Positions 2,147 to 54,186 of a stretch of DNA of 64,000 nt are shown one piece after another. The notes under the pieces were generated by a model. It had not been told where the DNA came from and made no database searches. It worked only from the letters and a program-made list of their open reading frames with translations. A program made the position numbers and the translations under genes. The stretch comes from Pseudovirgaria hyperparasitica (taxonomy: Eukaryota): assembly GCA_010093815.1 (NCBI GenBank), contig ML996581.1; one strand, written 5' to 3'. How positions within the stretch are numbered: position 1 is the stretch's first letter; every line of letters begins with the position of its first letter.

Positions 2147-2674
2147 GCGCTTAGTGATGAGTCCTGATGTCGATCGTCGGCCGGTTTCTTCTATTCTTTA
2201 CTTTGTTTTTCTACTATTGTTTGTAGGCTTCTTCACGGAAAGAGCCATGTGCTCCTTCGGCTCCTCTGTGAGGGCTGTAACGTGAGCCATTCTGCAATTA
2301 GCGATACCTGTAGGCTGGTTCCTGTTGGACCAGGCGTTGGAATATTGAATGAGGCTGCATGAGCGCGCGGAGTCTGCTCGTCTTGGGTGGTCATCTCTAC
2401 TATATTTTACGGATGGAATATAGTCTTTTATGACATTGACTGGTTACGATCATGTGAAGCTCGCGATTAGAATGCTCAGAATCAGATGAGCAGTCGCACG
2501 TGACGACGCTTGCTCGACGTGATAGACCGTCAATTAATTAGTCTCGACGCGGTCTTTGCTTCCCCACTTGGCATGGCGCATTTTCATGTTGAACCAAAAT
2601 CATTCTTTAGTTCTCTTCTCTACAATCACTTCTGATGCTCAAAGTCCACATAGTCGTGCAGTCTGTCTACGTTA

Positions 2675-25700: not shown

Positions 25701-27523
25701 TACGTGCAGGATGACATTCGCAGCAAACTGCGGAGCAGTCTCCCGCGTGACTTTGCTTCCAAAATCCCACTGCTTTAAAATCTCGTCAGCAAAGCGCCCC
25801 AGTTGTGTTCTTAGAGGCTTTTGAGCTTCCTCCCATTCTCTATCCGTAATTTCTTTCAGTTCCCTCTGGCTGATCTCTTGCTGACGTCGATCAGAGACTT
25901 TGTGCTGGACCAAAGATTTGTGAGCAGCGTCTTGACGCTCTTTCTCCTCAGCTATTTCGCGTTGCGCAATTAGCTTGGGCTTCAGCATCTCCCAGCCACG
26001 ATCTGTCATCGGGGTAGTAATCTGCATGGCGGCTTTGAAAGAATCCATATGTCGAAGGATGTTCGGAGCGATAGGAGGGTGAAGCGCCTCACATCGTCTT
26101 TCAATATCTGCGCGGCGTAGAGCTTTCATCTCTGTCACATCCCGAAATGACCTATCGTGCCTTTGGGCAGGATGCGTAGGAAGGGGAGGTGGAGCGTAGG
26201 GAGTTTGCTGATATGTGGGTGTGTAGGAGTTTGGGATGTATGGCGGCTGTGATTGCGGCATCGGATGTTGCACTAGATGATCGTTAGTCTTCGCTTTGGT
26301 CTTCTCCTAATGATTCTAGTGGTAGGACGAACTTGAGTGAGTCCCGTACGCGTAAGGATTTGGACCGTTGTATATAGGTATGGGCGCGTTGAAGGGACCT
26401 GCGAATCCAGTCGGCGCAGGCGAATATATTGGATGCTGGGAGTTGGGGGCAGAGGTATGCCACAAACGAGGGTCAGGATTCGTCGACACAGGTAAAGTTG
26501 CGATATTTGCAGGCGCATCGGCTTTCGCTGCTGCTCCAACTTTATTGTTCGTATTGGGCGCTTGCACATGATTGATCTCCCAACGTTCACAGCGTTCTGC
26601 ATCGGACAGCCGTGTCTTGCCTCGAGAATCAAGGCCTTTGTGCCACTCTTCCGCAGCTGCTTGCCCGAGCGCTTTCGCAGCGATGAATTCCTCCTGTATT
26701 TGTTCCACTTGCGTTGTATAATAGCACTTGCGTAATTGTATTGTTGGTGGCGGTGACGCGTGGTGCAGTGTAGATGCAGGTACGACGTGCAGGTCTTGCG
26801 TCAAGAAGATGAAGGGAAGGCCAGGGAGAAGCGGCGAAGCAGTTGACATGAGTAGAGACGTATCCTATGAAGGTAAGTAAGCTGGCGATGCGACTAGATA
26901 GAATCGATTACCTTCTGACACTTTGATTCCAAGCACATTCCACACGATCGAATCCCAAAAGCCCATACAATCCGAACCCCAGTGCGGCCTGGACCTCTGT
27001 CCCAGGTACTATTACCTTGAGGCTGGCCTATTTTATGACAGAATTGGCAGCGACGACCTTTGACAAGTTTCCACATATCCAGCTCTGTTGTTCCAATCAA
27101 AGGCTTCGGAAAATGAGACTCGTAAGATTTGCGAGAATTAGACCAAACGGCCTCAGAAGTCTGCAACTTTGGAAAAGTCAAATAGGCTTTCCCGGACAGA
27201 TCGCGAATTCTTGTCAAGTACAAATTGAAAACACGGTTGACCTGGAGAAGTCGACCGAGGTCTTGAGGATGAAGATAAGAAAATACATTCTGCCAGATAT
27301 CTGGCGGAAGATTGACACAGAAAGGAACAGGAGTACTCTCAGGGCGAGAAGTGCCCTGAGATAGCCTTCGCTTTTTCTGTGGAGGACTAGAAGAATCCTC
27401 TGCTTTGCGCTTCACATTTTCGGTAATGTGTATCTCTTCGCCAGGCTCTTTTTCGATTTCTGACGTTGAATCGTATAGGTCAGAGGAGCCGGCGCTTCTG
27501 GCACTCTCGTCACTAGCTGCCAT
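22745..27523 (-). CDS. Large F-box protein with C2H2-like zinc fingers and a disordered Arg/Pro/Tyr-rich tail
   Basis: Four exons joined by introns 26865-26911, 26273-26332 and 24020-24077 (phases checked). F-box LPPDIWQNVFSYL..DLGRLLQVNRVF; CQFC..CGMC; CNGC..FEGVIQHYAAKH; CKSC..HYKHEH. Confidence 0.85.
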
Positions 27524-33599: not shown

Positions 33600-34081
33600 C
33601 TCCTACCAGAGGAGGCATTTATTCGCTGGGATGGCTCGTGGTCGCGCATCAGAATAGAGGCATCTGGACTATGGCATCATGCTAGAGGCTGGACAATCAG
33701 GACAACGACATTGAGAGCATCATCCATGCTGTTCCAGTGAAGGAGCGGTGGCTACAGAGCCAATAACGACACGACAGTACGGTTATCAACGGTTATCAGA
33801 CGACGGAAAGCCTGTCTCTGGTTGACAATAAAAATACTTCTGGTCAGGTGGAGATTCGTTGGCCAGGGCGTTACGTACTAGGATTCGGAGGGCCCGGGTG
33901 AGGGTGAGAGTCTTGAGATAAGGACAACGGAAGATATTCCGGCCATTCCGGCCTCGAAAACTTTCATCCATAAAAGCGACCGCCGGTAAGGGCGGAGCGG
34001 CTCAGAACGCTCTTCTCTCCTTCCCACTCAAACTTCCATTCTATCAGACTTCCATCTCTTTGATATTCTCTTCAACTCATC

Positions 34082-35669
34082 ATGCCATCATCGGCACTCT
34101 CCCAGCTCAATGTCCTCGTCGATACTCGGAAGGATGATACCGGACTTCCGGCTTTCATGGTATCGACGGAACGAGGCTTTCTCCCTCGTCAGGAACCTGT
34201 TGTCGAGCTTCCTACGGACTTCCATGCTCTCGAGTCTATTCTCACTCGCATGCCAATCGTTACTGCCTCTGGTACTCCGGGTCTCCTCGCTGAATACAAA
34301 TTGGGCGATACTGTCATGAAGGAGCTCCCCGATCTATCCAATGCCATTGAGAAATACCGCGACAACCTCCCTCTGATGAACGCACTGTACAGGGACTATT
34401 CATTCTTGGCTTCTGCGTACCTACTTGAACCGTGTCATGAGAGATTTATGCAAGGGCTCGAATACGGGCTTGGAAGGCAGACCTTGCCTTCCGTAATCGC
34501 GCTACCAATCGTCAAAGTTGCTGAAATGTATGTTTCTCTTCTGATTATTGGGGCACCATCACTGACTTCCATCAGCGCCGGCTTCAAGCCGTTCATGGAG
34601 TATGCTGGCTCTTATGCACTCTTCAACTATAAACTAGCGGATGCTTCGCAAGGTCTTGCGTACGACAACCTGCGTCTAATCCGCGCATTCGAACGTGGGC
34701 TTGACCCTAGTTCGTCGGAAGCTGGCTTCGTTCTAGTACATGTTGCCATGGTGAAGAACTCAGGTGGTCTCGTCGATGGGTCAATCGGCGTCCTTGATGG
34801 CGTTGCACAGTCAGATCGAGAGATGTTCAACCATGGCATGCGTAAAGTGGTAGAGGCACTGGACAAAATTAACGCCGTCATGAACAGTATGTTTATTCAG
34901 TGTCAAGGAAATAAAATTTCTAACCGTAGATAGCTATGTGGGCAAAGAGCAAGCCTGCCGGTTACACCACTTTCCGAACATTCATCTTTGGCATTACCAG
35001 CCAATCTATGTTCCCCAATGGTGTGATCTACGAGGGTGTGAGCGAGGATCCTGTAAGCTTCCGTGGCGAGTCTGGTGCAAACGATAGCATGGTACAATCC
35101 CCAAACAATACTCGTATAATCACACTGACAAATATAGATCCCACTGTGCGATAATCTGCTCCAGATAAGTATGCCATCGACGCCATTGACGGAGATCCTA
35201 AAGGACTTCCGTGCCTACCGACCAGGTAATCATCGAGACTTTCTCGAAGGGGTTAAAACCATGGCGGACAGCGTGGGTGTCAAGGACTTCGCCCTGAACG
35301 ACTCCGAGTCAGCTGCCCTTTACCTGCGAGCTCTGGACCAGGTGCGCGATTTTCGCTGGCGTCACTGGTGTTTCACCAGAGAGTACATCCTCAAGAGGAC
35401 ATCACACCCCACAGCCACAGGGGGAAGTCCTATCGTTACGGTAAGCATTGATGATCGACACTGCAAACCCCCAGAGAATACTCAGCTTACATATGTAGTG
35501 GCTTCCTAACCAGCTTCAGGCTGTGATGAACCAGATGATCGAGTCAGCTAAATTTTGCGCCAGTGTGGCAGGAACTCAGGAAATTCTGTCGAATGTGATG
35601 ACACAGCATGAGACTCTGCAAAAGGAAGTGCAAAAATACTGTGCGGAAAGGGGTGTGGCAGCTTCGTAA
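34082..35669 (+). CDS. Indoleamine 2,3-dioxygenase family protein (fungal IDO-gamma/IdoC-type)
   Basis: Introns 34528-34575, 34887-34933, 35092-35137, 35441-35498; RGFLP, MEYAGSYALFN, SEAGFVLVH, FRGESGANDS, DFRAYRPGNH, FRWRHWCFTREYI, ATGGSPIVTWLPNQL motifs. Confidence 0.93.
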
Positions 35670-40373: not shown

Positions 40374-41830
40374 ATGTCACTTTCGCGATCGCCTTCGCCT
40401 ACGCGAGGCGGAGGTTGGTCAAGTCCAGGACTCACAGCTCCTTATGACGAATCCAGTGGAAGATCAAGTCCCGCGGTCCGGACTTTCCCAAACAACGGGA
40501 ATGTAACATGGGCTTCGGCTCAAGCCCGAAGTGCAGAAGTCCAGGGATATGCATCTTTCTCGACGCGAAAGCAAGGATTCTTCTCGAAACACTTTCGCAA
40601 GTTGTCGCGTGGTCTACCTATAACATCGTACGCAGAGAAAGAGAAGCTCGAACGGAGATGGAAACGAATTAATGCAAAGAATGGGAGTTGGAGACTAATA
40701 GCAATTGCTGGAAGAATAGTATGGCGTCTGAGGCTACGACTGGCTGGACTCTTGATATTTCTGCTCGGGATTTTCATATTCTATGTTACACGTGAGTACG
40801 GCGTCTGATATGGCAGTGTGTATTGCTGATGATGTCTAGCGCTACACATGGTTGTGCGGCGATCCTTTGGCGGTGGAAATAAATTCGTTATAATATTAGC
40901 AGCGAACTTGGGAGGAGGAGTGATGGAATGGAAAGGTCCTCGAGAATGGGCAATTGAAAGAGATAGCGTAAAGAACAAGATGCACTATGCAAGAAAATGG
41001 GGATATGAGTTGGACATTGTGGACATGAGCACTAAGAAGAGATATGCTCACGAATGGAGAGAAAGCTGGGAGAAGGTTGATACGATAAGGAGCGCTATGC
41101 GTAAATATCCAGATGCTGAATGGTAGGGTTATACCGCCTGGTTATCAAACATGCAGATACTAATAGATATAGGTTCTGGTGGCTCGACCTCAACACTTTC
41201 ATCATGGAGCCTTCATATTCCCTACAATCTCACCTGTTCAAAGACCTCCAGAAGAATACCTACCGGGACATCAACTACTACAACCCCTTGAACATTTCTC
41301 ATCCCTTTACTTCAGAGTGGCTCGACTCTGAGTCGCGATCTGCAATAGGAGACGGCAAGTCAGAATCTATTAATTTCATCCTCTCACAAGATTGCGGGGG
41401 TTTCAATCTTGGGTCCTTCTTCGTTCGTCGCAGCGTTTGGACCGATCGCCTACTAGACATCTGGTGGGATCCCGTTGGCTACGAGCAGAAACATATGGAA
41501 TGGGAACATAAAGAGCAAGATGCACTTGAGCACATGTATACGAACTTCCCATGGGTGCGTCCACACATTGCATTCACCTCTCAGCGAAAAGTGAATAGCT
41601 TTCCTCCCGGAGCATGTGGCGGAGAGACTAAAGAGACGGAGAATGCAAAAATTCATTATCAAGAGAAGGACAGAGATTTCCTGGTCAATATGGCTGGTTG
41701 TGAATGGGGCCGTGACTGCTGGGGTGAAATGTACAATTTTCGTCAGCTCAGCCACAGACTCAATAGGGGTATGTGGGAGCAGTTTCGAGACAGGATCGCG
41801 GAGTCGTTCACAGGGACGAAGAACAGCTGA
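40374..41830 (+). CDS. MNN10: GT34 (Mnn10/Gma12-family) Golgi alpha-mannosyl/galactosyltransferase, type II membrane protein
   Basis: MSLSRSPSP..GGGWSSPGL N-terminus, TM, KRYAHEWRESWEKVD, EWFWWLD, QDCGGFNLGSFF, EQDALEH, NMAGCEWGRDCW; introns 40792-40839 and 41123-41172. Confidence 0.88.
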
Positions 41831-42874
41831 GTCAGCTTCAACAAAGATACCACCGGGCCGGCGTTCATGGATGTTGCCTTGTCACACTATTTCAACTTTC
41901 GGATACCATATTAACATTCTACTTTTACACTTAGCGGCATTGGCGGTTTGTATTCAGATGTTGTAACATATATATAGGGATATGTTGATTAGCAACACTT
42001 AGACGTAGGCATTGACGGGGACAACAGCAGCAATGATCTCGGCGGAGGGGGATCCGAGATAGTCTCGACCATGCACCTCCATCTCCAAAGCATGTCTGGA
42101 TCTCGGAGGTCTCGTACTGTGCACGGTCAAGAAGAGACAATGTTGGCGACAGGTTGATTTACCGCATAAACCTCTTGCATGCGGCGCCCAGGTTTTGTCT
42201 GGAACACGTTGCACTATAAACCACAACTCCTGCACTGGCCGACGGATCCGGATGTGGGGTGCAGCATCAGTATCAGAATATTATAACCACCAGTTCCAAG
42301 ACTAGAGATAGCTGGTGGAAGCGCAATGAAGAAATGGCTATTCACTGCTGCCCACTGTCCACTGTCCAAGCATAGAGCATAGGTATGCCATGGGGATCAC
42401 CGCCTTCCGGGGCGTGATCAGTGACTTGCCTATCCCATCCTGTCCTGCTGCCCTATCACTATCACGTTGCCAACATGCCCGCCAGCTGACTACGACGCCC
42501 TGCATCTTCCATCTCACACGCCAGCCACTCTCAGACATGTTTGCGCCTTGTCTTCCTCTTCATATCATTGTCGTTTCCCACGCTCAATAGCAAGATTTCC
42601 TTTTCTCTCCTAAAGATCAATAGCCGCTCGACTTCAGGGTTCGACGCGGCGCCAACCCCTCGCTCCACTCGCCTGCAGGGTCCAGCACGCATTCAGCGGG
42701 GAACAAAGATACCGAGATCGGCCAGCTTCTCACCGACTCCTTGAGATAGGACTGATATAGTCAAGAGGTGCTCTTGATCTCTCTGTCATCTTCAACCTTT
42801 TTCTTTCTATACGGGACTGAAACAATCTCACTTACTGAGCACTCCTCACCGAGCCACACGAGCACCTGCCCGTC

Positions 42875-44299
42875 ATGTCTCCAAACAACGCCCCACCACC
42901 TCGTCACAACGATCAGACTCAACAAGAACCCGTGCGGCCTACTGTCCAGGCTGTGAGATCTCTGCGAGCGTCATTACCACCTGGTGCTCGTCACAGGTCA
43001 GAAGGTACGTACTCTACATGTAATGTCTTTCGAGGTGTATCCGAGTCGCCATTCCACTGGCAAATACCATACAACATCTTCTGCATCATGTACACCATGG
43101 ATGACGTTGATATCTACATACCAGACTACATTGCTTACAATATACTCTCTACAGACTCGTGGATTGAAGTCTCGTCGCAACCATCCTCCTCCTCACTGTC
43201 GTCGGTCGCGCCCGACGATATCATTACGGAAGGCCTGCGTGTGCAACATGATAACAATATTCGTCGACGAAGGCGCCTTCGTACCACCGGGTCGCTACAG
43301 CTAGGAGATCGAATGTACAACAACAGTACAGGGGCGAGTAGTCAGGAGGAGTATGAGGAGAGTGAGAGCGAGTCGGACCGTATTATGATGTCGTCGAATG
43401 AGGGTATTCGCGCATCCTTATTGCGAAACGAGTTGCACCATATCGAGCAGCACGATGCCTCGACAGCCTCATCGGAAGATTTGTCCGCGGCTGAATACGA
43501 TGATGACGAAAACTCGACCGCTGTCAACTATCCTCGAGGAAGCACGTTGTCTTTCAGACCTCAACCAAACGCCTTCACCCACCCTCCAACAGTGCAACGA
43601 CCTAGAGCCATGCGGTCCGGTAGCTACACTTCAGGAAGACCACATATAAGATCTACAACCCAGAGACACTCCTACGCCGGGCAACGGCATTCACCTTATA
43701 ACGTCATCTCCCCTTCGCATCAAGCAGACCACGATGCAGTACTACGCGCCAGTCTTTCCACCCTCCTCTCCTTGGGCGCCGCCGCACGAGGCCTCCCAAA
43801 ATCTACTCCACAGACCAACAACACTGCTTCTGCAGCGCCATCATCACGTATAGAACCGACATCTATACGTATGGTCCCTGAGTCTGTTGCCCTAGGTGGT
43901 AACATGACTCCGAGCGAAAGGAACTCCACCGACTCCTCACAGCCTGGGAATCCCTCCTCTGGGAACTCTCCGATCGTGTTTGATGGCAAACGCAAATCAT
44001 CCCCAGCTCCTCGGAGCAGCAGTAAAGAGCGTCGGACGGCCAAGAAAGTTAAGCGGACGTCTAGTATGGAGGATATTAGTCCGACGCTGCTCACTTGGGT
44101 CATGAGTGCCGGTGTTATGGTGCTTTTCAGTGCCATAAGCTTCTCGGCAGGCTACATGGTCGGCAAAGAAGCTGGCAGGACAGAAGCCTTTGGTACCGCT
44201 GCGGGTGATCTCCGGCCCTGTGGCAGAGAGGCGTCCTCTGGGTTCAGGAGGCTGAAGTGGAGTGGTGTTGCGAATGCAGCTACCGGCGTTCGGGTCTGA
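42875..44299 (+). CDS. Hypothetical protein with long disordered N-terminus (DSWIEV motif) and one C-proximal transmembrane helix
   Basis: 474-aa ORF containing a probable stop-free 150-nt intron 43005-43154 (GTACGT..GCTTAC..CAG), spliced length 424 aa; TM LLTWVMSAGVMVLFSAISFSAGYMVG at about 44087-44164. Confidence 0.8.
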   Translation: MSPNNAPPPRHNDQTQQEPVRPTVQAVRSLRASLPPGARHRSEGTYSTCNVFRGVSESPFHWQIPYNIFCIMYTMDDVDIYIPDYIAYNILSTDSWIEVSSQPSSSSLSSVAPDDIITEGLRVQHDNNIRRRRRLRTTGSLQLGDRMYNNSTGASSQEEYEESESESDRIMMSSNEGIRASLLRNELHHIEQHDASTASSEDLSAAEYDDDENSTAVNYPRGSTLSFRPQPNAFTHPPTVQRPRAMRSGSYTSGRPHIRSTTQRHSYAGQRHSPYNVISPSHQADHDAVLRASLSTLLSLGAAARGLPKSTPQTNNTASAAPSSRIEPTSIRMVPESVALGGNMTPSERNSTDSSQPGNPSSGNSPIVFDGKRKSSPAPRSSSKERRTAKKVKRTSSMEDISPTLLTWVMSAGVMVLFSAISFSAGYMVGKEAGRTEAFGTAAGDLRPCGREASSGFRRLKWSGVANAATGVRV

Positions 44300-45573
44300 A
44301 GATCATCCTGTACACCGACAGTCCCCTTCATTGCCAGTGTTTGGACTTTGCCGCCGGGTTCCGGAGAGTATAGCATGTCCTCAATCACACGAGCAGTTAT
44401 AGCTGTTCTAATACCCAGAGCCCACGCGTGTATCCCCCTGGGCACGCTCGAACTGCCATGAATCATGATGATATGACTCATGACACGGATGACACCAAGG
44501 ACGAGAAATGACACAAGGAAGAGACGAATTTTCCACGCACACACACACAAGGTTCATAATTTGCATGCATATTTTGGTGGCGTCGCTCTTTGGATCTATA
44601 CCGGTATTATGATACCACATGGGCTTCTGCATAATTCTGTAGAGCTGCATTGCTTCTCCCTTTTGTCGGCCTTTTTTTTATGTGGCGTCGAGCAGGCGTT
44701 TGTGGGTTTATTCTGGAAAGGAACGAACAAAACTTATATATTAATACCAACCTAGCGAAACCTGAGAACTTGAATGATATCTTATATTGTTTGCCGGTCA
44801 TTTGAACTTGGATGCCTCCACTCCATCTGCTTTGCCTGCTTATTTAAAGGATGAAGGTATGTAGTGAAGCTGATATGCTAATAACTAGAGTGGCCTCGGT
44901 GGGCAAGAGCAATCATGGATTCAACCAGGCATGCGTAGCTTCCGTATCACTCAGTTCACCATGTGGGCACTCTCTCGTCTGGTTCGATTATCCCGAGTCT
45001 CACCGACCAGACATCAAAAGTGCCTTCCAACGCTTTAACCATTCACGACGCTGCAGGGCAAGATCAACAAGGACGAAGATCCATCAGTAAACAAATAGAT
45101 TAGGTGCATGTGAACAAATTAGAATTATGACGCGAAGCCTTTGCTCGCGGGTGCGTGTGCGTGCTACCTAACTAACTAACCCCCTTGAAATGCGCTTGCT
45201 TGTCTGCCGATGCTCGTACTCGTTCGTTACCTGTTTCTACAACAATTCGTCTACCTCATTAGGAGAGCACCACATCATACCATAAGTGCTACGCTCGTCC
45301 TTTGCGTGCTTAATAAGACTCGCCAGGCGTCCAGCCCTGTCAATGCTTGAACTCCGATGGACCCCGATGATGCACCCCTAGAAGGTATGGTGGTCAAAAA
45401 TGAAGGCGACCATTTTTAAAATGCAACAAAGACAGAAAATTTTCCAAAGAACACACCAAATACGGCTAATGAACTCATATGTTAACTTTTGTTGTCCCAT
45501 CACCACCACGCATTATGGGTCATAATGGTCGAGATGTATATGAGAAATGGTGTAGTAGGGTGAAGCTTTGTCA

Positions 45574-47549
45574 TTACATGACAATGCAGTCCTTCTTGTC
45601 CTTTGGCGACTTGGGCGCTTTGGCTTGTTTATCAGGAATCCCGGACCCTCCAGCCGCGGCATCGCGGATGATAGCAAGGCGTTGCTTCGCTCGTTCGTCA
45701 CCTTGGTCGGCCGCTTTGACATACCAGACATTAGCCTCTAGAGGATCTCGGCGACATCCTATTCCCATTTCCGTGAAGTAACCGCAAGCATACTCAGCTT
45801 TAGCAAGACCTATGGAGTGTTTAGTGTTCATCAACGATATTGACCCGCGAACTCACCTAGGTCCGCTGCGCGCTTGGCCCATTCATAGGCCTCGGCTTCA
45901 TCTTTTTCCAGTACAGGCTCTGCGCCGACCATATACCATGCACATAGATTCATCATAGCTTCCTCGTGGTCGGCCTGGGCGGCGATATTGTAGAAGTGTA
46001 TGCTCAGTGCTGGATCCTTCGGACAGTGTAGAAGGCCGTGTTCATAAGCTTCGCCCATGCGTCGAGCCGCTTCCGGGTGGCCCAGTTCAGCTGATCTCGT
46101 AAAAAGCTGTGCAGCGTAGGCTTCATCCTTGAAACAATCCGCGCCATAGCCGGTCTCATGAAGTAACCCCAGCTCATATGGCGCAGCATTGTACTGTGAG
46201 TCTGCACTATCAACGCCGCGCTTGAGCCATTTCAGACCTTCTCGGTAGTTGTCAGTCAACCCAAGCTCCTTTCTTATACATGCCACGCCAAGACGACTAG
46301 CGGAACCAGGATGTGCCTTTGCTGCAGATGCTCGATAAAACTGGACAGATTTTTGAAAATCACGACGACATCCCCAGCCATATTCGTAGCACAAAGCAGC
46401 CCGATAACCTGCTTCGGCGTGACCATGTTTACTTGCAGCGACGAAAAGCGGAAACGCACGACCATAATCCTCTTTCCCTTTGTTGAACAGGCCGGAGAAG
46501 AAGCCGTCCCCCAGGTAATACTGTGCAAACGGAAAACTCTTGTCCGCTAAACGCTGAAGGGCGGCTTGTGCTTCTTTCAACAATTCGGCTGGATTGATCC
46601 CAGCAGTCTCGGCACTCTCCCCACTAGCCATGATGTCTTTAGCAATACCCACCATGTAAATGGCAAATTCGTAGGCGACAGACGACTCCGTTGTCTTCTT
46701 CAAATTGGCACGATATAGATCGAGGGTCTTTTTGGAGTCTAATAATGACGCATTGCTGCCTACAACGTTTCGGAGGCCCGAGTTTCCCAGTCCGCTTGCC
46801 GGGGCAATCTGTTGAGAGTACGGAGCATTGAGAAGATCTACATACGACATAGGGCGATTGTCTGGTGACCTTCTGTTTGAGGATACGCCACGCCCATAGT
46901 GTATAGGAGAGCCGCTAGGCGAATCATATACAGAGAGATGCGGGGAATTCGTTCGTCCCCTGAGATCCTGTCCTAGGGTCGCACGAGTACCATTGCCCGG
47001 CATCGGAAGCTCACCACGGCCTGTTGTTTGTTCGCTTGAGTGTGAGGAAGCACTGGGTGACTGTACGTGGGCTCGAGTCGTTGGTGATTGTCTGGAAGTC
47101 TCAAAGGGTCTGTGAAAGTACTGTAGTTGGGGTGCAGGTTCTTCGTTGCCTTGTGGACTATCCTCATCTTGAACGTGTTCAATTTCTGCAGAAAGAGCTA
47201 TGTGCGCGGTCTGCGATTGTCGATGTGTGCCACCACTAGTCTCAACCTGTCCTTGACGATATGGGATCTCCCTTGTTATTGGTAGTGTTCCCGAATCTCT
47301 ATCTCTTGCTGGCTCCGGGGTCTCCACATCTCTGGAATTTCGTTGGGAGTGGTCACGACTGTCTAACATGAACGACGAGCCTTCTGATTGTCTAGAGAAG
47401 TTGTGGCTAGATTCGGTAAGAGAATTGTGTTCCTCGAGAGTGACGGATGGAAGCGGATGGGCGAAGTTGGAAGTTGTCCTTAGAGGGAATGAGTTGCGAC
47501 TACGAGTCTCCGCAGATGGCGAAGTGCCATTCTTTTGTGATGTGCTCAT
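45574..47549 (-). CDS. SKT5: Sel1-repeat chitin synthase activator (Chs4/Skt5 homologue) with C-terminal CaaX
   Basis: Multiple Sel1 repeats (AQYYLGD, AAKAHP, APYELGLLHETG, LCAWYMVG, AEYACGYFTEMGIG); intron 45810-45856; ends KKDCIVM* (prenylation motif). Confidence 0.92.
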
Positions 47550-50435
47550 AGAGATACGGGGTCAAGGGGCAACGCGAGGGCCCCACCGCGCACTATGCGA
47601 AATCTTGGGTTGTATACTCGCGAGACCTCGCGGGCATGTAAATAGAAAAGGCCTAGACCACCAAGTACGTTGACGTATCGCCTGTACCTCGCGACAGCCT
47701 CTTGTCTGTCGTATACGGTTGACTTGTCAGGATGCTGAGTTGTGGGTGATTCGAAGTGAGGTTCAGAGATAATTGAGCGAGAGCGATACTGATGTCTTTG
47801 GCTTAGGCTACCTAGTCTACATGCAGGGTCAGCGATCAAACGGACAAGGTACAAGGCATCACGGCGAATGGAGGTCAACCTTACAGGACAAGGATCGGGG
47901 TCAACGAGTCTGAACCGGTCTTGAATAATGACTGGTGATTAAGAAGATCAAGTGGCCGTATAGATGGCCGAAGTCTGTAGCAAGTTGGGAAAGACAAGCA
48001 GTACAACAGGAGTTTTGGCTGGCACCGGGCTGAATCGTCACTTTCGGAGTTGAGTAAGGCAGCCAAATCGCGGCTGCTGATTCACGGCCAAGCGTTGCGC
48101 CGCTCCCGGTCGTAAAATTTATTGATCTCCAGCTTCCAGCTTTCGGAAGTGAACGCCAGCACCAGCGGAGCCTAATTAGAAAAAGTACAGAACATCTGAG
48201 CACTAATTATCCAAGGCTCGCTATGACGCTTGCGCGTAGTCCGGTGGACCTTCAGACTCTATGCCTACACAGTGCCAATAAGCTGAAATAAAATCATGCC
48301 ATGGCGCCGCAACTTGAACACGTTTAGGTGACGTCCAAAGGGATGCCGCCGAAGCTATGCCAGACGCGGGCCTGCATCTTCTCGTACTGGTTACGCTTGG
48401 GATCGGAGGCGCAGGCGTGTCACACGGTATGTCTCCGTGGTGTCGGCTGTCAGCCTTGTTACTTAAGGCATTTTGTCGCTTGACAGTATAGATGGCGGGC
48501 ATGCATGTTGGCAAGGGATGACGATGATGATGTTGGGAGGTTGCATCTGGATTGGCGCCCGGAACGTTCTGCTTACTACAACTATTCGAGTAGAGGTATG
48601 CCCACTGTCGATGACACCTGCCTACCCAGCTCTCCGAACGAAAGGGCTGATGTATTTATTGCACGCCATGTCTCATAGACCAGGAAGATAGCACAGCAGG
48701 ACTTACCGTAGTCAAAATGCATCTTCTTTTGATCTCTGCGGATAAAAGTACTTTGTCCATTCACGCGATAAGCACAAGGTAAGCTAGGATGACGAACGTT
48801 CTGTCCAAGACCTTTGCCCATTAATTATGGATGCGGGAGGGGATTATCTGGAAGAAGAAGCTGCCAATTCGGCCGAAGCTCAAATGAGACCAAGAGAGAG
48901 AGAGAGAGAGCAGGGATCACATTCGCATGGCAGATCGGCAAAACGTAGAGATCTGCTAAAGGGGCTCGGAGCGCCGCATGGCTGAAACCATTCATTCTCC
49001 ATGTTACGCAAATGAGGCAACTGATTCAAAGAGGACCGTCCATCATGGCGCAGGACAGAACATCCATCCAGCTTGAAGCTCGACTTCCAGCAAGTAATGA
49101 CCGGTGCGCTCTCGAATTGGTACAGATACTAATTACTGTAGCAAAGCAATAGCCTTGTTGGACTTGGAGTGAGCCGCTCGTGCACTTGCAGAACCTTCCT
49201 CGAACAGCCTTGCCGAGAAGCGGACATATGGTGGGTCCGCAATCTGGTCCACTTTCGTACTTTACGACACTTCCATGTCTATTAATTATGTCGGAAGACA
49301 TTGACACAGCGCAAAGGAAAGAAGCTGTGGCGAAGTTTGGCTGTCAAGAACACGCCATGGCTAGCAGCGAACGATGAATTCTACTATTTACCGCCGCGCG
49401 AGAAACTCACCTCATCAAGACAGGTCTACAGGTTGAGGCAAGTCGTTCCCACTGCACCGCTGCAAAAATGCGCAGTTAGCTCGAGCCTTGCGAGGCAACT
49501 TACGCGCGCTGTAGTCCATGATGTCTATCCATCTATCCACGAGAGTGCACGCAATCGATAAAAGGATAAGAAGGGAGGCTCTAGCTAATACCACGCGCCC
49601 AAAAATAAGATGGCGATAGTCCAGCCCGCATCCCAAAACATGCCCCGGTAATACTGGCTCCCCACTGTTCCCTTGCGTTCAGTTGGTTGGGCAACCTACG
49701 CTGTGCCATATATGGTAAACTAGAGCCCAGTTAAGACAAACTTCTTTATTTTTGCCCGCCATCCGGTCGCGCAAAGGGTCTCTCTTGTTTGAAAGCTGCC
49801 AGTTCCTCTAGCCTTCCACCACCACCTCCACCGCCCAGCCAGCCGCGCCCACGCTTTTTGCCCCAGCTCCGGCCCAGCGACACAGCCAGGGGTTTGGCAG
49901 GCAGCATCCACCCATCAAGGGTTTCCCCCTTCTTCTCCCTTGTCCACCTCTCCTCCCCGATCTTATTCTAATCCTACTCAGAACCTCGCTCGCTCTTTTG
50001 ACGAGGGTCTGGTTGCTCGTCGTTACCGTCCTGTACCGTTTATAGCAGCAGTCTTTCGTTTACGCTGCTATACTATACCTAGGTACCTTATCAACTTCTT
50101 CACGATCGTTCTTGCTTCGCGTTTGGGCCTAGTACCTAAACACGTCCATTCGCTGGTACACAGTTCCACCAATACCACCACCAGCCCACCTCAACCTCTT
50201 TCATTCCTCATTCAGCCTCGCCCACGGCCACACCCAACGTAATCTTATAATACCATTGTTCATACCTCCGGCGTTCGTTCAGTCGTTCGCACCGTCATAC
50301 ATCAACACGTCTTGTCCTCTCAGAGCCTGGAAGACCCCAGCAAACAGACGGCATTGCCGTCACTGATAGGTGCGTAGAAATCGCGTGTTTGTGCTTCATC
50401 GCATAGGAAAACTGACAGATGATTACCACAGTACC

Positions 50436-53400
50436 ATGTCGTTACCTCAGCGGCCTGGTATGGCCTCTCGCGACGAGCAGAGTTCATACCGCAACACACC
50501 TTCTAATCGGCGCCGACGAGCACCATCTGACGCCGAATACTTGAACCCGTCTCCTACAGAACAGAAATCACCTTTTCAGTCACACTCCAATGCCTTCCCT
50601 TCTCCTCAATCACCGCCAATAGATTCCTCGGATTACATGATGGGGCAACAGCGCGGTGGTGGTGGTGACCTGGGCCGGAAGCGAAGTCTGGTCAGACCTG
50701 AACGCCAGAGATTCGACAAAGATCATCCCAATTACCACTACAGGAAACACGCCCAGAACATGGCTGTCCATCCATCCACGACGGGAAACGATCCGATACT
50801 AGAAGACGGCGAAACCGTTGTCTCTGATAGCACTCGTGATGGTGTCCCAACTCCATATGAGGAAAAGGCATCAAATCTGCCTGGAAGGAATGGAAATGGC
50901 CCTATACCGATGGAACGAGTGGAGTCTCGCAGGGCATCCCGGAAACTTACGCGGAAAGAAACGAAACAAATTAGGGAGGACGAGAAGAAGCGACAGAAGC
51001 AAAGGGACAACGCCAACCCGCCTAGTCTTTGGAGGATATACTGCAATGTCGTCACATTTTGGGCGCCAGGTGCCATTCTCAAGTGTTTCGGCATGCCTCA
51101 GAAGGCACAGCAAGGTGCTTGGCGAGAGAAAATGGGTCTCGTCAGTATCATTATCCTCATCGCAACTTTCGTCGGTTACCTCACATTCGGCTTCACTGAG
51201 ACTGTTTGCCCAAACGGCGGTGGAGATCGGTTACAGATCAACAAGGTTGATTCGGGTTTCATGATATTCCACGGAAAGGCCTACGACTTGTCACGCTCTC
51301 GACATCCCTGGGTTCGCGGTATTCCAGAAAACGCCAATGTCCTGTTCGATCTTCCAGAGAAGCATGGTGGTAAGGATGGCAGCTTCATGTTTCAGAACGT
51401 CAACGGCAATTGCAAGGGCCTCATCACTCCAGCAGAGAATTCTGATGTTCCCGTTGACAGTAACGGTAACATGGCCTGGTACTTTCCATGTACCGATTTC
51501 AACCAGGACGGCTCGAGCCATTACAACAACACTCCCAACCCGTACTATCTTGGGTACTCTTGCCATACCTCACGAGACGCGCGCAATACTTTTTACAATT
51601 TGCGTAGCACTGGAGATGTTTATTTCACGTGGGATGACATTCGAAACTCAAGCCGCAATTTGATGGTCTATGGAAGCGATGTCTTGGACTTGAATCTCCT
51701 CAGCTTCTTCAACAAGTCACAAGTTTCGTATCCTTCCGACTGGGACATTCTCCGTGAAAACCCCAACGTTCGAGGGGTTGACGTTACCCAGTCCTTCTCA
51801 TCTAGTGCAGACAGAAAGATGGGACGATGCTTCACCGAAATTATCAAAGTCGGTGTGATCGATACTGCGACCATTGGTTGCATTGCCTCTCAAGTGGTGC
51901 TCTATGTCTCGCTCATCTTTATCCTGTCCATTGTCGTCATAAAGTTCATGCTCGCTTTAATCTTCCAATGGTTCTTATGCAAGAAATTTGGCGCTGCCAA
52001 AACATCAATGAGTGGAATGAACGAGAAGGCCCGCAATCAGCAAATTGAAGAGTGGAGCGACGACATTTACCGACCACCGCCAAAGTTGGCTGACCCCATT
52101 ACTCCAGGTAACCGCAACAGTGCGCGTGGTAGCGCTTTCTTCCCATCGACGTCCAGATTCACGAGTCCATACGCTATGGACAAAGGTGTCTCCGCGAAGG
52201 GACGACCTGGCCCGACAACTATGGCAAGCCAGGCTTCGACCGCCCTTCTGAAGTCAAAGTCTGGAATGTATAGCCAAGTCAACCAAAGCCAAGGAACTCT
52301 CGTCGGAGCGCACGAACCGCGCTCTAGTCTGATGCTCTCAAGTAACAACGATGGACGATATTCTAGTGTAGTGGATAGTGACGGTCCAGGGCCAGCTGGT
52401 TTCGTTCACGAAGCAGTGGTTCCCCAACCTCCAGCTGACTACCAACCATTCGGATATCCACTTGCTCACAATATCTGCCTAGTCACTTGCTACTCGGAAG
52501 GTGAAGACGGGCTGAGAACCACACTGGACTCGATCGCCACCACTGATTACCCCAACAGTCACAAGCTTATCTTGGTCATTTGCGACGGTATGGTCAAGGG
52601 TGCAGGTGAAGAGCTCACCACGCCTGAGATCGCACTTGGTATGATGAAAGATCACGCCATACTTCCTCACGAAGTCCAGCCATTCTCCTATGTGGCCGTC
52701 GCCAGTGGATCAAAGCGTCATAACATGGCCAAAATTTATTCTGGGTTTTATGATTATGGCGACAAGTCCGTCATCCCATTCGAGAAGCAGCAGCGTGTTC
52801 CAATGATGGTTGTTGTCAAGACTGGAACTCCCGATGAAGCCCAAAATGCCAAACCTGGTAATCGTGGAAAGCGCGACAGCCAGATCATCCTGATGTCCTT
52901 CCTCCAGAAAGTCATGTTCGATGAGCGTATGACTGAACTTGAATACGAAATGTTCAACGGAATATGGAAAATCACCGGTATTTCCCCCGATTATTACGAA
53001 ATTGTTCTCATGGTAGATGCCGATACGAAGGTGTTCCCTGACAGTCTTACACACATGATCTCGGCTATGGTGAAGGATCCTGAGGTCATGGGTCTGTGTG
53101 GCGAGACTAAGATTGCGAACAAACGTCAAAGCTGGGTCTCCATGATCCAGGTTTTCGAATACTTCATATCCCATCATCTGTCGAAGTCCTTCGAATCGGT
53201 CTTTGGTGGTGTCACCTGTCTTCCAGGATGCTTCTGCATGTACCGCATCAAGGCTCCTAAGGGTGGGCAGAATTACTGGGTACCCATTCTTGCCAATCCC
53301 GATGTCGTCGAACATTACTCGGAAAATGTTGTGGAGACTCTACATGAGAAGAACCTACTTTTGCTTGGTGAAGATCGATACTTGTCAACTCTCATGCTGC

Positions 53401-54186
53401 GCACGTTCCCTAAACGAAAGCAAATCTTTGTTCCTCAAGCTGTTTGCAAAACTATTGTGCCAGACGAGTTCAAGGTCCTCCTCTCGCAGCGTCGCCGATG
53501 GATCAACAGTACCGTGCATAACCTGATGGAACTGGTACTCGTCCGTGACTTGTGCGGTACTTTTTGCTTTAGTATGCAATTCGTCGTCTTTATTGAACTA
53601 GTCGGAACCCTGGTTCTGCCTGCAGCCATTTCTTTTACCATATATCTTAGTAAGTTTAGTAGAAGTTCTCGGCTGGAGAGTAGCTAACAGAGCCATAGTT
53701 GTCATTTCCATCAAAGCTGGTATTGAACATACAGCAGTACCTGTTATCCCTCTCGTGCTTCTAGCGCTCATTTTGGGTCTCCCAGCCGTCCTCATTGTCT
53801 TGACTGCTCATCGCTGGTCCTACGTGGCGTGGATGATCATCTATCTATTCTCGCTTCCCATCTGGAACTTTGTGCTACCAACATATGCCTACTGGAAGTT
53901 TGACGACTTCTCATGGGGTGATACTCGGAAAACATCGGGCGAAAAGACCAAGAAAGCCGGACTCGAATATGAAGGCGAGTTCGACAGCAGCAAGATTACA
54001 ATGAAGCGATGGCATGATTTTGAAGCTGGTACGTCACATTGAGATGCGTTGTTTGTGTTCAAGCTTTATTAACGAGTTGAAACAGAGCGCCGATTGAAAG
54101 CACCCAGTGGCGGGTGGTCACAACAGCAAACGTCGGCTGGCGGCTGGCCCATGCAGCACGGACACGACTCATATTACGAACCCTAG
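50436..54186 (+). CDS. CHS3: Class IV chitin synthase (yeast Chs3 / Aspergillus ChsD type)
   Basis: AWREKMGL, cytochrome-b5-like domain, [50 protein letters not shown] motifs; no myosin domain; introns 53650-53698 and 54029-54085; 5'-UTR intron 50370-50431. Confidence 0.95.

Follow-up and report, generated by a model that had tools for sequence, protein, structure and literature searches.

At positions 42875-44299 on the plus strand of the window, by which we mean the whole 64-kb stretch of Pseudovirgaria hyperparasitica DNA that was analysed, lies a two-exon gene whose product, read from the letters and the splice, has 424 amino acids. The gene and the contigs that cover it are laid out as follows.

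42875-42877, plus strand: ATG start codon, read from the sequence.
42875-43004, plus strand: coding part of exon 1, Met1 to Glu43 plus base 1 of Asp44; the encoded leader is poorly conserved in the alignments.
43005-43154, plus strand: intron of 150 nt, GTACGT..CAG (GT..AG), in frame and stop-free; the contigs of both runs skip exactly 150 nt.
43155-44299, plus strand: coding part of exon 2 (380 amino acids), an open reading frame up to the stop codon TGA at 44297-44299.
42579-44728, plus strand: extent of the transcript-like spliced contigs of two public runs, with a 5' UTR of at least 296 nt and a 3' UTR of at least 429 nt.

Exon 1 ends at 43004 with ..RHRSE and the G of a codon that is split by the intron; together with the AC at 43155-43156 this G encodes Asp44, and Ser45 follows at 43157-43159. 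The spliced 424-residue product agrees in every residue with the public P. hyperparasitica protein model (P0003), with 100% identity over the 380 residues of exon 2. The splice is supported by contigs from two public runs of one sample, the kind of run not being on record; no RNA run is listed among the public sequencing runs that carry this stretch. These contigs extend from 42632 or 42579 to 43002 and from 43153 to 44722 or 44728, the joint having GT..AG ends, and the 296 nt that they cover ahead of the start codon (42579-42874) hold no ATG. Since the intron is in frame, the open reading frame taken by itself could mislead. The preliminary description of this DNA had given the two-exon model, the 150-nt intron and a W-I-E-V core at 43160-43171, and each of these elements was found at its place in the sequence, the public model and the contigs.

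About ten conserved islands lie along the encoded protein, whose N-terminal part is a chain of short linear motifs; the Trp island [DE]-S-W-[VI]-E-[VI] is one of them. Its features are listed below.

43157-43171, plus strand: S45-W46-I47-E48-V49, a core of LIR/AIM type with Ser at -1 and Asp44 at -2, in agreement with the consensus of the LIR, of the GIM (W/F-V/I-x-V) and of the FIR.
43181-43207, plus strand: P53-SSSSLSS-V61, an invariant Ser run in the alignments; S56-V61 (SSLSSV) agrees with the FIR consensus and is similar to D/SILSSS, the consensus for Atg11 binding in yeast.
43214-43237, plus strand: D64-D-I-I-T-E-G-L71, a conserved DEI[IV]TTGL island (pattern counts) and second candidate motif of Atg11-binding type.
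43262-43282, plus strand: basic cluster R80-RRRRLR86, with R83 at 97% in the profile.
43337-43378, plus strand: acidic Ser tract SSQEEYEESESESD (residues 105-118) with several CK2-type S-x-x-[DE] patterns, the CK2-like sites being at 105, 106, 113 and 115.
43499-43588, plus strand: two linear islands in the alignments, DDDENSTAVNYPR (159-171) and FRPQPNAFTHPP (177-188).
43721-43801, plus strand: predicted helix 233-253 (AlphaFold2 pLDDT 65-69, hydrophobic moment about 0.3) in the most invariant island, DHDAxLRASLxTLLSxxAAARGLPK (235-259).
43856-43897, plus strand: island P278-TSIRMVPESVALG291 in the alignments, with E286 at 97%.
43988-44056, plus strand: basic NLS-like juxtamembrane clusters K322-RK ... 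KKVKR344, on the presumed cytosolic side (protein features, profile).
44081-44164, plus strand: transmembrane helix P353 to G380 (within AlphaFold2 helix 353-390, pLDDT 78-83), with the small or otherwise invariant residues A362, G363, S369, F373, A375 and G376-x-x-x-G380 in the alignments.
44165-44296, plus strand: C-terminal tail of about 43 residues, predicted to be non-cytosolic; conserved in it are E382, G384, E387 and Cys399 (44219-44221), along with a basic patch similar to G-L-R-R-L-R-W (protein features, family profile).

AlphaFold2, run on a 30-sequence alignment, gave a mean pLDDT of 51 and helices solely at 233-253, 286-289 and 353-390. Residues 26-68, which include the Trp motif, had a pLDDT below 50 and no secondary structure, and the ESM Atlas model of the protein had a pLDDT of 0.47; the disorder claimed beforehand is in keeping with the mean value of 51. 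There is one hydrophobic segment, with a Kyte-Doolittle 19-window maximum of 1.95 at residue 355 and no other window above 1.6. The SAGYMVG stretch sits inside this transmembrane segment, and G376 and G380 are invariant across the family alignments. As had been described, the acidic Ser tract, RRRRRLR, KRK..KKVKR, the single transmembrane segment with SAGYMVG and the short tail could all be read off the public protein P0003. The gene is genuine and spliced, and its product, which occurs across filamentous ascomycetes, is largely disordered and anchored in a membrane.

Net charge ahead of the transmembrane segment is +4 in 20 residues here, and the family median is +5 in 30 residues. By the positive-inside rule, positive charge flanking a transmembrane segment marks the cytosolic side and, because it precedes the segment here, the N-terminus is probably cytosolic. 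The charge distribution therefore suggests a single-pass protein anchored near its C-terminus, with a disordered N-terminal part of about 350 residues facing the cytosol. Over the family the tail has a median of 50 residues (range 22-74) and a median net charge of +4, with a Cys in 392 of 416 members. A two-copy complex prediction for residues 340-424 (transmembrane segment and tail), run without folded controls, scored 0.05 and was uninformative for or against a dimer.

Three homologue searches, started from this protein, a Sordariomycete-like representative and a divergent one, returned 1811, 1676 and 1550 significant relatives, and among the best 120 of each the family was present in Dothideomycetes, Sordariomycetes and Leotiomycetes. 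No member from Eurotiomycetes or from outside Pezizomycotina was among these best 120, which is no evidence of absence. A profile search gave 278 representatives at 50% identity, the best 150 of which were all family members. The family is also kept in powdery mildews, which have reduced genomes. The protein looks single-copy. Members are named 'hypothetical' in the databases, and many bear the automatic name 'REJ domain-containing protein'. When the protein and 30 members were searched against Pfam, only sub-threshold noise was obtained (Herpes_pp38 at E 0.1, bZIP_Maf and others), and the REJ domain had no match in 30/30 members, so that the name probably reflects Ser-rich composition. A PDB profile search returned only RAD21 at E of about 8, a compositional match, and the ESM Atlas returned only the family's own unnamed Ascomycota clusters; no named cluster came up, and the structure TM-scores did not exceed 0.23.

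Trp46 was invariant in 24/24 Dothideomycetes sequences and in 30/30 diverse representatives at 31-50% identity. An aromatic-x-x-[LIV] core no more than 12 residues upstream of the Ser island was present in 310 of the 315 members that cover that island; the five misses comprised two N-truncated models, one model without the upstream exon, one mis-anchored pattern (the sequence has ESWIDI) and one DSWIQL cut off at the edge of the counted span. The motif was missing from 45 of 376 members, nearly all of them N-truncated models, and no full-length member examined was without the Trp. The pattern [DEST][DEST][FWY]xx[ILV] occurred in 414 of 416 full-length members, a profile pre-selected for the Trp motif and the helix, so that 100% values in those columns are circular. 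The Trp island stands out because the roughly 40 residues N-terminal of it are unalignable. A check run on the expectation that the Trp motif and the transmembrane segment would be the conserved islands bore this out across three Pezizomycotina classes (DSW[VI]E[VI], with W46 30/30; G376 and G380 invariant), although they are two of about ten. Neither loss of the motif among orthologues nor a profile match to a family of another function, both of which had been named as counting against the receptor reading, was observed.

DSWIEV is the sole match in the protein to the xLIR pattern, and residues 1-352 contain no Trp other than W46. The caveat given at the outset, that short motifs arise by chance, is well founded, since in 20,000 shuffles of residues 1-352 an xLIR-type match arose in 10.6% (1.5% for [DEST][DEST]Wxx[ILV]). 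Taken for a single sequence, this estimate is weak evidence for the motif; conservation is decisive against chance. It could be argued from the shuffles, the in-frame intron and the automatic name of many orthologues that the motif arose by coincidence in a reading frame of low complexity or wrong annotation, or that this is a 'REJ domain' protein. Against this notion stand the spliced form in the run contigs, the large number of relatives with an invariant Trp and the empty Pfam searches; we regard it as extremely improbable and, because of the conservation and the splice data, already refuted.

Conservation shows that the Trp island is functional, without by itself identifying Atg8 as its partner. 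In the LIR consensus the core [W/F/Y]-x-x-[I/L/V] is preceded, at -1 to -3, by residues that are acidic or can be phosphorylated (PMC7615515, in the part available). The same source quotes the optineurin motif 'DS-FVEI' as a dual LIR/FIR that, once phosphorylated, binds both Atg8-family proteins and FIP200; DS-WIEV and ES-WVEI of the family follow the same two consensus patterns. This likeness is confined to the motif, optineurin being a soluble animal ubiquitin-binding coiled-coil protein. In S-S-W-V-E-L of NIX/BNIP3, phosphorylation of the flanking Ser raises the affinity for LC3B about 100-fold (PMC5430633, in part). Ser45-x-x-Glu48 itself matches the CK2-type pattern. DSWIEV is put forward as a candidate phospho-regulated Atg8-interacting motif, possibly also of Atg11/FIP200 type. 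Among the other motif classes compared, kinesin light chain W-acidic, Pex14 WxxxF/Y, SUMO-interaction motif and beta-TrCP degron were rejected for the Trp island since none fits. For the other islands, calcineurin PxIxIT/LxVP sites were likewise set aside, and so was a PP1 RVxF match in the tail because the tail would not face the cytosol. The window holds no Atg8 gene.

The Ser run, DEI[IV]TTG and the acidic CK2-type Ser cluster all lie within 25-70 residues C-terminal of the Trp motif. SSLSS[ILV], which fits the FIR consensus, was found in 259 of the 416 pre-selected members. A DEIITTG-like pattern was present in 284 of 315 members and degenerate in P0240, P0242, P0217 and Blumeria P0423; the acidic Ser tract pattern was present in 326 of 375. 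The Atg11-binding consensus of yeast is D/SILSSS with a regulatory Ser (PMC4195827, in part, quoting Farré 2013), and both SSLSS[IVA] (56-61) and DEI[IV]TTG (64-70) resemble it without a literal match. Further downstream, the PQPNAFSHP pattern occurred in 348 of 375 members, and residues L240, R241, S243, L244, T246, L247 and L248 of the helix island were invariant in 30/30 diverse representatives.

With about ten islands, of which the Trp motif and the transmembrane segment are two, the protein is more than an AIM on an anchor, and since the most invariant island is the helix at 235-259 and not the AIM, its main role may lie elsewhere. It could be a membrane-anchored scaffold of short linear motifs outside autophagy, for instance an adaptor for tethering or for organelle contact sites, a protein of the nuclear envelope or a kinase/phosphatase docking platform, with the Trp island binding a partner other than Atg8. 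Such a role would suit the islands DDDENxTALG, FxPQPNAFSHPP and LRLVPES, for which we know of no autophagy counterpart, and the NLS-like clusters R80-R86 and KRK..KKVKR, together with a 'nucl 14' localisation score for the probable Sordaria orthologue. Retention in the reduced genomes of powdery mildews fits a housekeeping role. The acidic E-Y-E-E-S-E-S, which may bear a loose likeness to an FFAT-like VAP-binding motif, was counted on the same side. However, the Trp island fits three published consensus patterns of Atg8/FIP200 type with a regulatory Ser at -1, the Ser motifs resembling Atg11-binding sites come next after it, and no other Trp-motif class that we considered fits. The extra islands are also compatible with a receptor, as receptors need contacts to cargo, regulators and kinases. 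We consider a scaffold outside autophagy somewhat unlikely.

The alternative that we favour, to which we give about even weight, is a phospho-regulated, membrane-anchored selective-autophagy receptor that would work like Atg32, BNIP3/NIX or Atg43 without detectable homology to them. All functional evidence for this role is at the level of motifs, from which we infer Atg8 and Atg11 binding, phospho-regulation and the receptor role itself. In such a receptor the transmembrane segment and tail would hold the protein in the membrane of an organelle. A signal would lead CK2/CK1-type kinases to act on Ser45 and on the Ser run, after which the N-terminal module would engage both the Atg11 scaffold and the Atg8 of the phagophore. 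Enclosure and degradation of the organelle would follow, as with Atg32, Atg43 and BNIP3/NIX. The moderately hydrophobic transmembrane segment and the basic tail lean towards the mitochondrial outer membrane and/or peroxisomes, and the NLS-like basic clusters may also point to the ER or the nuclear envelope. The receptor reading of the preliminary description stands in so far as the motif and the transmembrane segment are conserved and no other family claims the protein, whereas the likeness in layout to Atg32, Atg39 and BNIP3 is loose, and there are more islands than an AIM and an anchor.

In Atg39 the transmembrane segment lies in mid-protein, which is not the C-proximal arrangement here. Atg32 has a folded cytosolic (pseudo-receiver) domain between its motifs and its transmembrane segment, whereas the AlphaFold2 model here shows helix 233-253 but no folded domain. 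The part order is otherwise the same: a W-type AIM, then a Ser-rich stretch, in the family one that resembles Atg11-binding sites, and an acidic cluster, with a putative CK2-type logic of regulation, a long linker, a single C-proximal transmembrane segment and a tail. For Atg32, the cytosolic N-terminal AIM, the Atg11-binding stretch, the acidic cluster and the C-proximal transmembrane segment are described in the available parts of PMC9980689 and PMC8226480. The intermembrane-space domain of Atg32 comprises residues 412-529, about 118 residues (PMC9980689, in part), compared with a tail of 43 residues here. The family also differs in that its Atg11-type motif has no literal D/SILSSS and in its extra islands, including the 235-259 helix, for which we know of no Atg32 counterpart. 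The shared order would be expected if the family were genuinely orthologous to yeast Atg32 and had strongly diverged from it. This reading has against it the missing folded domain, the shorter tail, the profile matches, whose best 150 of 278 were all family members, and reviews that in their available parts report no detectable homologue in filamentous ascomycetes (PMC9980689, PMC8226480, PMC7711908). Homology to Atg32 is, in our view, improbable.

The likeness to BNIP3/NIX lies in the motif and the anchor, both proteins having a disordered N-terminus and a C-terminal transmembrane segment that contains GxxxG (G376 and G380 here) and many small residues. BNIP3 has a tail of about 10 residues after this segment, as against about 43-50 in the family. 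The family protein is about twice as long, has no BH3-like segment and gave no match to BNIP3 (PF06553) at E up to 1 for the protein or any of the 30 members. The transmembrane segment of BNIP3 forms a homodimer through small-xxx-small; the invariant G376-x-x-x-G380 is a candidate counterpart here. S-W-V-E-L corresponds to [DE]-S-W-[VI]-E-[VI], with the Ser directly before the Trp (PMC5430633, in part). Atg43 of Schizosaccharomyces pombe is a 27-kDa protein with a transmembrane segment at 187-211 whose insertion needs the MIM complex (PMC9980689, in part). Compared by its description in the available part of that source, it shares with the family an AIM, a disordered cytosolic part, a single transmembrane segment and a short tail, and it is likewise a lineage-restricted receptor without Atg32 homology.

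No homologue of Atg32, Atg30 or Atg36 is known from filamentous ascomycetes according to the available parts of PMC7711908, PMC8226480 and PMC9980689, and reviews from 2020 to 2026, as far as their text was available, describe the group as without recognisable Atg32, Atg30, Atg36 or Atg39. Because these receptors are unrecognised there, organelle-selective autophagy has been explained by soluble or indirect factors (Atg24/Snx4, NBR1, SUN-domain proteins). With no such homologue in these reviews, the receptor niche appears vacant. The family might be the long-missing Atg32-equivalent of filamentous ascomycetes: an independently evolved receptor of the mitochondrial outer membrane (possibly also of peroxisomes), whose single dual LIR/FIR [DE]-S-W-[VI]-E-[VI] would become active once CK2-type kinases had phosphorylated Ser45 and the Ser run next to it and would recruit Atg8 and Atg11, with helix 235-259 coupling to an organelle-side partner or to a regulator such as the STRIPAK/Far phosphatase complex. 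In this full form the proposal is tentative and, to our mind, unlikely.

With its invariant NIX-like LIR the family offers a concrete gene for the question of organelle autophagy in a group rich in plant pathogens and industrial species. Should the receptor role be true, it would be the third independent invention of a disordered phospho-LIR arm on a one-pass anchor; should it be false, this is still an unnamed protein of three Pezizomycotina classes with about ten invariant linear motifs.

Literature searches for a transmembrane Atg8 autophagy receptor of Pezizomycotina and for six orthologue locus tags found nothing, and among the matches listed for ER-phagy and nucleophagy receptors in fungal genera nothing was relevant. 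Binding, localisation or phenotype data for a family member were not found in the literature. The preliminary description had called the protein uncharacterised, which holds in that no functional study was found; a probable orthologue had, however, already been placed in a candidate list in 2021 (PMC8226480 Table S1). In that motif screen Kück and Stein (2021) listed SMAC_02823 among 27 Atg32-like candidates without highlighting it, and described it by an LIR 'SWVEI', EED and DDD as its acidic clusters, a C-terminal transmembrane segment, euascomycete-only occurrence and a WoLF PSORT value of 'nucl 14' (PMC8226480 Table S1). The main texts searched contained no follow-up of SMAC_02823. The same authors highlighted SMAC_04227 instead (Kück and Stein 2021). 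Since the phosphosites of SMAC_04227 reach S732, it is a longer, different protein, and it was rejected as an orthologue in view of the 439-443 residues of the Sordaria/Neurospora orthologues. The descriptors of SMAC_02823 agree with the Sordaria brevicollis orthologue P0329 and, judged by these rather than by its sequence, SMAC_02823 is probably the Sordaria member of the family. MoAti1 was rejected as a family member, being a SUN-domain protein without a transmembrane segment (PMC10938464). In the same study a two-hybrid screen with MoAtg8 gave 32 candidates, 14 of which are 'hypothetical' MGG loci (PMC10938464).

The gene under study, whose product is the 424-aa public protein P0003, reads as set out in the preliminary description. 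Its parts are:

42875 (ATG)-43004, + strand, coding part of exon 1, read from the sequence
43005-43154, + strand, intron of 150 nt (GTACGT...CAG), from the sequence and the contig joint
to TGA at 44297-44299, + strand, coding part of exon 2, read from the sequence
43160-43171, + strand, W-I-E-V core, the spliced junction reading RHRSE-D-SWIEV

In the homologue search, exon 2 (380 residues) matched at 100% identity a public protein of Pseudovirgaria hyperparasitica that is annotated as hypothetical, and whose 424 aa equal exon 1 plus exon 2 of the gene model. Contigs from two public runs of one sample, the kind of which is not on record, span 42579/42632 to 44722/44728 and omit exactly 150 nt with GT..AG ends; on the simplest reading, the contigs across 42579-44728 would be transcript-derived. 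No ATG was found upstream of 42875 in the 296 nt that they cover. Because the intron contains no stop and keeps the reading frame, 42839-44299 forms a single open frame. If retained, it would add 50 aa right before Asp44-Ser45-Trp46, which would still read ..STDSWIEV. P0004, the closest relative at 75% identity, comes from a model on a 1756-nt contig and starts within the equivalent stretch, where its peptide is very similar; this start is probably an artefact of ORF calling on genomic DNA, although the 3' half of the intron, when translated, shows roughly the same conservation as exon sequence.

Three sequence searches with different queries returned 1811, 1676 and 1550 significant relatives (the best 120 of each listed), and a profile search of 1.84 billion 50%-identity representatives gave 278 matches (best 150 listed), 253 of them at E <=1e-10 and 196 at E <=1e-30. 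Named members belong to the Dothideomycetes, the Sordariomycetes (Neurospora, Sordaria, Podospora, Chaetomium, Colletotrichum and Trichoderma) and the Leotiomycetes (Botrytis-type fungi, Sclerotinia and the powdery mildews Blumeria, Erysiphe and Golovinomyces); none from Eurotiomycetes or from outside Pezizomycotina was among the best 120 matches listed per search. All are named 'hypothetical', 'uncharacterized' or, automatically in UniProt, 'REJ domain-containing protein' (P0010, P0011, P0014 and others). A Pfam scan of 30 members gave no match to REJ or to another domain for any of them, so the latter name is apparently an artefact of low-complexity, Ser-rich sequence. A PDB profile search with the family yielded compositional noise only. 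In the representative P0264 (1101 aa), sequence corresponding to the family's N-terminal half, with ESWVEI, occupies residues 857-1082 of a far longer protein, which is probably a fused gene model.

About ten islands, strung along a chain that otherwise does not align, recurred in three alignments: one of 24 Dothideomycetes sequences, one of 30 diverse representatives (31-50% identity) and one of 416 full-length members.

Conserved islands of the family in the alignments
[DE]-S-W-[VI]-E-[VI]-x-S-x-P-S-S-S-S-L-S-S
D-E-I-[IV]-T-T-G-L-R-V
Arg cluster
S-S-Q-E-E-Y-E-E-S-E-S-E-x-D-R
D-D-D-E-N-x-T-A-L-G
F-x-P-Q-P-N-A-F-S-H-P-P
D-H-D-A-A-L-R-A-S-L-x-T-L-L-S-C-A-A-A-A-R-G-L-P-K (predicted helix)
L-R-L-V-P-E-S
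K-R-K ... K-K-x-R
S-P-T-L-L-T-W-V-V-S-A-G-V-V-V-L-V-S-x-x-G-F-x-A-G-Y-x-x-G (TM)
C-G-R-E and G-L-R-R-L-R-W (tail)

Because a sequence had to show the helix pattern and the Trp motif to enter the set of 416, 100% values in those columns are circular. By a less biased count, the helix pattern occurs in 376 of 388 proteins and the Trp pattern in 331 of those 376; nearly all of the other 45 are models cut short at the N-terminus, many beginning just past the intron position. An aromatic-x-x-[LIV] core lies at most 12 residues upstream in 310 of the 315 members covering the Ser island, the five exceptions being artefacts, and no full-length member without the Trp was found among the family sequences examined. 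Powdery mildews, which are obligate biotrophs (Blumeria graminis P0423; P0251 and P0267), have retained the gene and, within it, the helix, the TM and the Trp motif (as ESWIDI). Their Ser run and DEI[IV]TTG island are degenerate, which hints that the Trp motif is more essential than these two.

The first island, DSWIEV, is the sole match in P0003 to the xLIR pattern for Atg8-interacting motifs (AIM/LIR). Since such a match arises in 10.6% of shuffled sequences (1.5% for the stricter [DEST][DEST]Wxx[ILV]), the motif in a single sequence is weak alone, and conservation carries the argument. A 2023 review (PMC7615515) gives the LIR core as [W/F/Y]-x-x-[I/L/V] preceded by residues that are acidic or can be phosphorylated, the GABARAP-type motif (GIM) as (W/F)-(V/I)-x-V, the FIP200-interacting consensus (FIR) as [DEST]-[DEST]-[FWYILV]-x-x-[ILV], and the dual motif of OPTN as 'DS-FVEI'. 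The family motif [DE]-S-W-[VI]-E-[VI] is compatible with all of these, the GIM occurring in 153 of the 416 pre-selected full-length members, namely those with a terminal Val. It also parallels the NIX/BNIP3 LIR S-S-W-V-E-L; according to PMC5430633, phosphorylating both serines ahead of the Trp of NIX raises LC3B affinity about 100-fold. Ser45 is 99.5% conserved in the 416-member alignment, and its context S-x-x-E is a minimal CK2 site.

Residues 56-61 correspond to SSLSS[I/A/V]; in 259 of 416 members the stretch ends in I, L or V and so fits the FIR consensus. D-E-I-[IV]-T-T-G was found in 284 of 315. Both resemble, with no literal match, the yeast Atg11-binding consensus D/SILSSS, which according to PMC4195827 is common to Atg32, Atg36, PpAtg30 and Atg19 and has its Ser phosphorylated by CK2 or Hrr25. 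The acidic tract at 105-118 contains four S-x-x-[DE] sites. From the N-terminus, a putative AIM is thus followed by a candidate Atg11-type motif, an acidic cluster, a long linker predicted to be disordered, a single TM and the tail, a layout that PMC9980689 and PMC8226480 describe for Atg32 and, on a smaller scale, for Atg43.

For P0003, AlphaFold2 with the 30-sequence alignment gave a mean pLDDT of 51, a pTM of 0.24 and only three predicted helices (233-253, 286-289 and 353-390), and the ESM Atlas model was equally poor (pLDDT 0.47). Hydropathy indicates a single membrane segment, with a 19-residue Kyte-Doolittle maximum of 1.95 at residue 355, the rest never exceeding 1.6. The net charge is +4 in the 20 residues preceding the TM and +3 in the 43-residue tail. 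As a basic flank marks the cytosolic side of a TM (positive-inside rule), the long N-terminal part would be cytosolic; it contains 17.6% Ser, 10.2% Arg and one Trp only (W46). The invariant G376-x-x-x-G380 and other small residues of the TM suggest helix packing.

Orthologues of Atg32, Atg30 and Atg36 were not found in filamentous ascomycetes according to reviews from 2020, 2021 and 2022 (PMC7711908, PMC8226480, PMC9980689), and passages of two 2026 reviews (PMC13757524, PMC13208281) still name only Atg24-type and SUN-domain factors as receptors there. MoAti1 was rejected as a match, being a SUN-domain protein without TM and hence unrelated. A screen of Sordaria macrospora by Kück and Stein (2021) yielded 27 proteins carrying Atg32-like motifs (PMC8226480). 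Their highlighted candidate, SMAC_04227, was rejected as an orthologue because its phosphosites reach S732, indicating a longer protein, different from the 439-443-aa Sordaria/Neurospora orthologues. Another entry in Table S1 of that paper is SMAC_02823, for which the LIR is given as 'SWVEI' and the acidic clusters as 'EED' and 'DDD', together with 'SSSS' and the remark 'exclusively found in euascomycetes: yes'. The Sordaria brevicollis orthologue has DSWVEI, SEEDR, SDDDEN and PSSSSLSS, and by these matching descriptors, rather than by sequence, SMAC_02823 is very probably a family member, so that the family would have been flagged once before, among 27 candidates. No follow-up on SMAC_02823, six other locus tags or the topic was found in the main texts of open-access papers and bioRxiv.

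The preliminary description had proposed a selective-autophagy receptor. This is partly supported, as far as the conserved motif, the disordered, presumably cytosolic arm and the one-pass anchor, beyond which we infer every step of the mechanism. We give about an even chance to the protein being a membrane-anchored, phospho-switched selective-autophagy receptor that binds Atg8 and Atg11. In such a receptor, the TM would tether the protein to its organelle, Atg8 and Atg11 would bind once Ser45 and the Ser run are phosphorylated, and the remaining islands would provide cargo-side, regulatory or oligomerisation contacts. In tail-anchored proteins, a moderately hydrophobic TM and a basic tail favour the mitochondrial outer membrane or peroxisomes. 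The TM value of 1.95 and the basic tail, which in the family is 22-74 aa long with a median charge of +4 (416 members), would lean towards these two. The basic clusters resemble nuclear localisation signals, and WoLF PSORT gave 'nucl 14' for the probable orthologue SMAC_02823 (supplementary Table S1), which makes the nuclear envelope and ER further possible sites.

In this proposal the protein works like Atg32, Atg43 or BNIP3/NIX but is filed under none of them, because the BNIP3 Pfam profile gave no match, AlphaFold2 predicted no folded Atg32-type domain in P0003 and the Atg11 consensus is not literal. Judged by its sequences, it would represent a new, unnamed family belonging to a known kind of system. 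On wholly computational evidence, the family opens a recognised gap in fungal cell biology to direct tests, a probable orthologue having already been listed by the earlier motif screen.

Other genes in the window are:

2654-5419, + strand, DRMBL and metallo-beta-lactamase protein (Pso2/Snm1-type DNA repair; Pfam)
23883-26306, - strand, DUF7892 protein (Pfam)
34064-34930, + strand, indoleamine 2,3-dioxygenase-like ORF (Pfam, E 1e-14)
41120-41827, + strand, GMA12/MNN10-family galactosyl/mannosyl-transferase domain (E 1e-43)
45834-47561, - strand, Sel1-repeat protein (Pfam Sel1, E 2e-25)
50370-53684, + strand, chitin synthase (Chitin_synth_2 and CHS4-like domains, E 4e-235)

The transferase, the upstream neighbour, has no apparent functional link to the receptor candidate. 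The Sel1-repeat gene is divergent to the chitin synthase gene, and the pair may be a Chs4/Skt5-type activator beside a class IV-type synthase.
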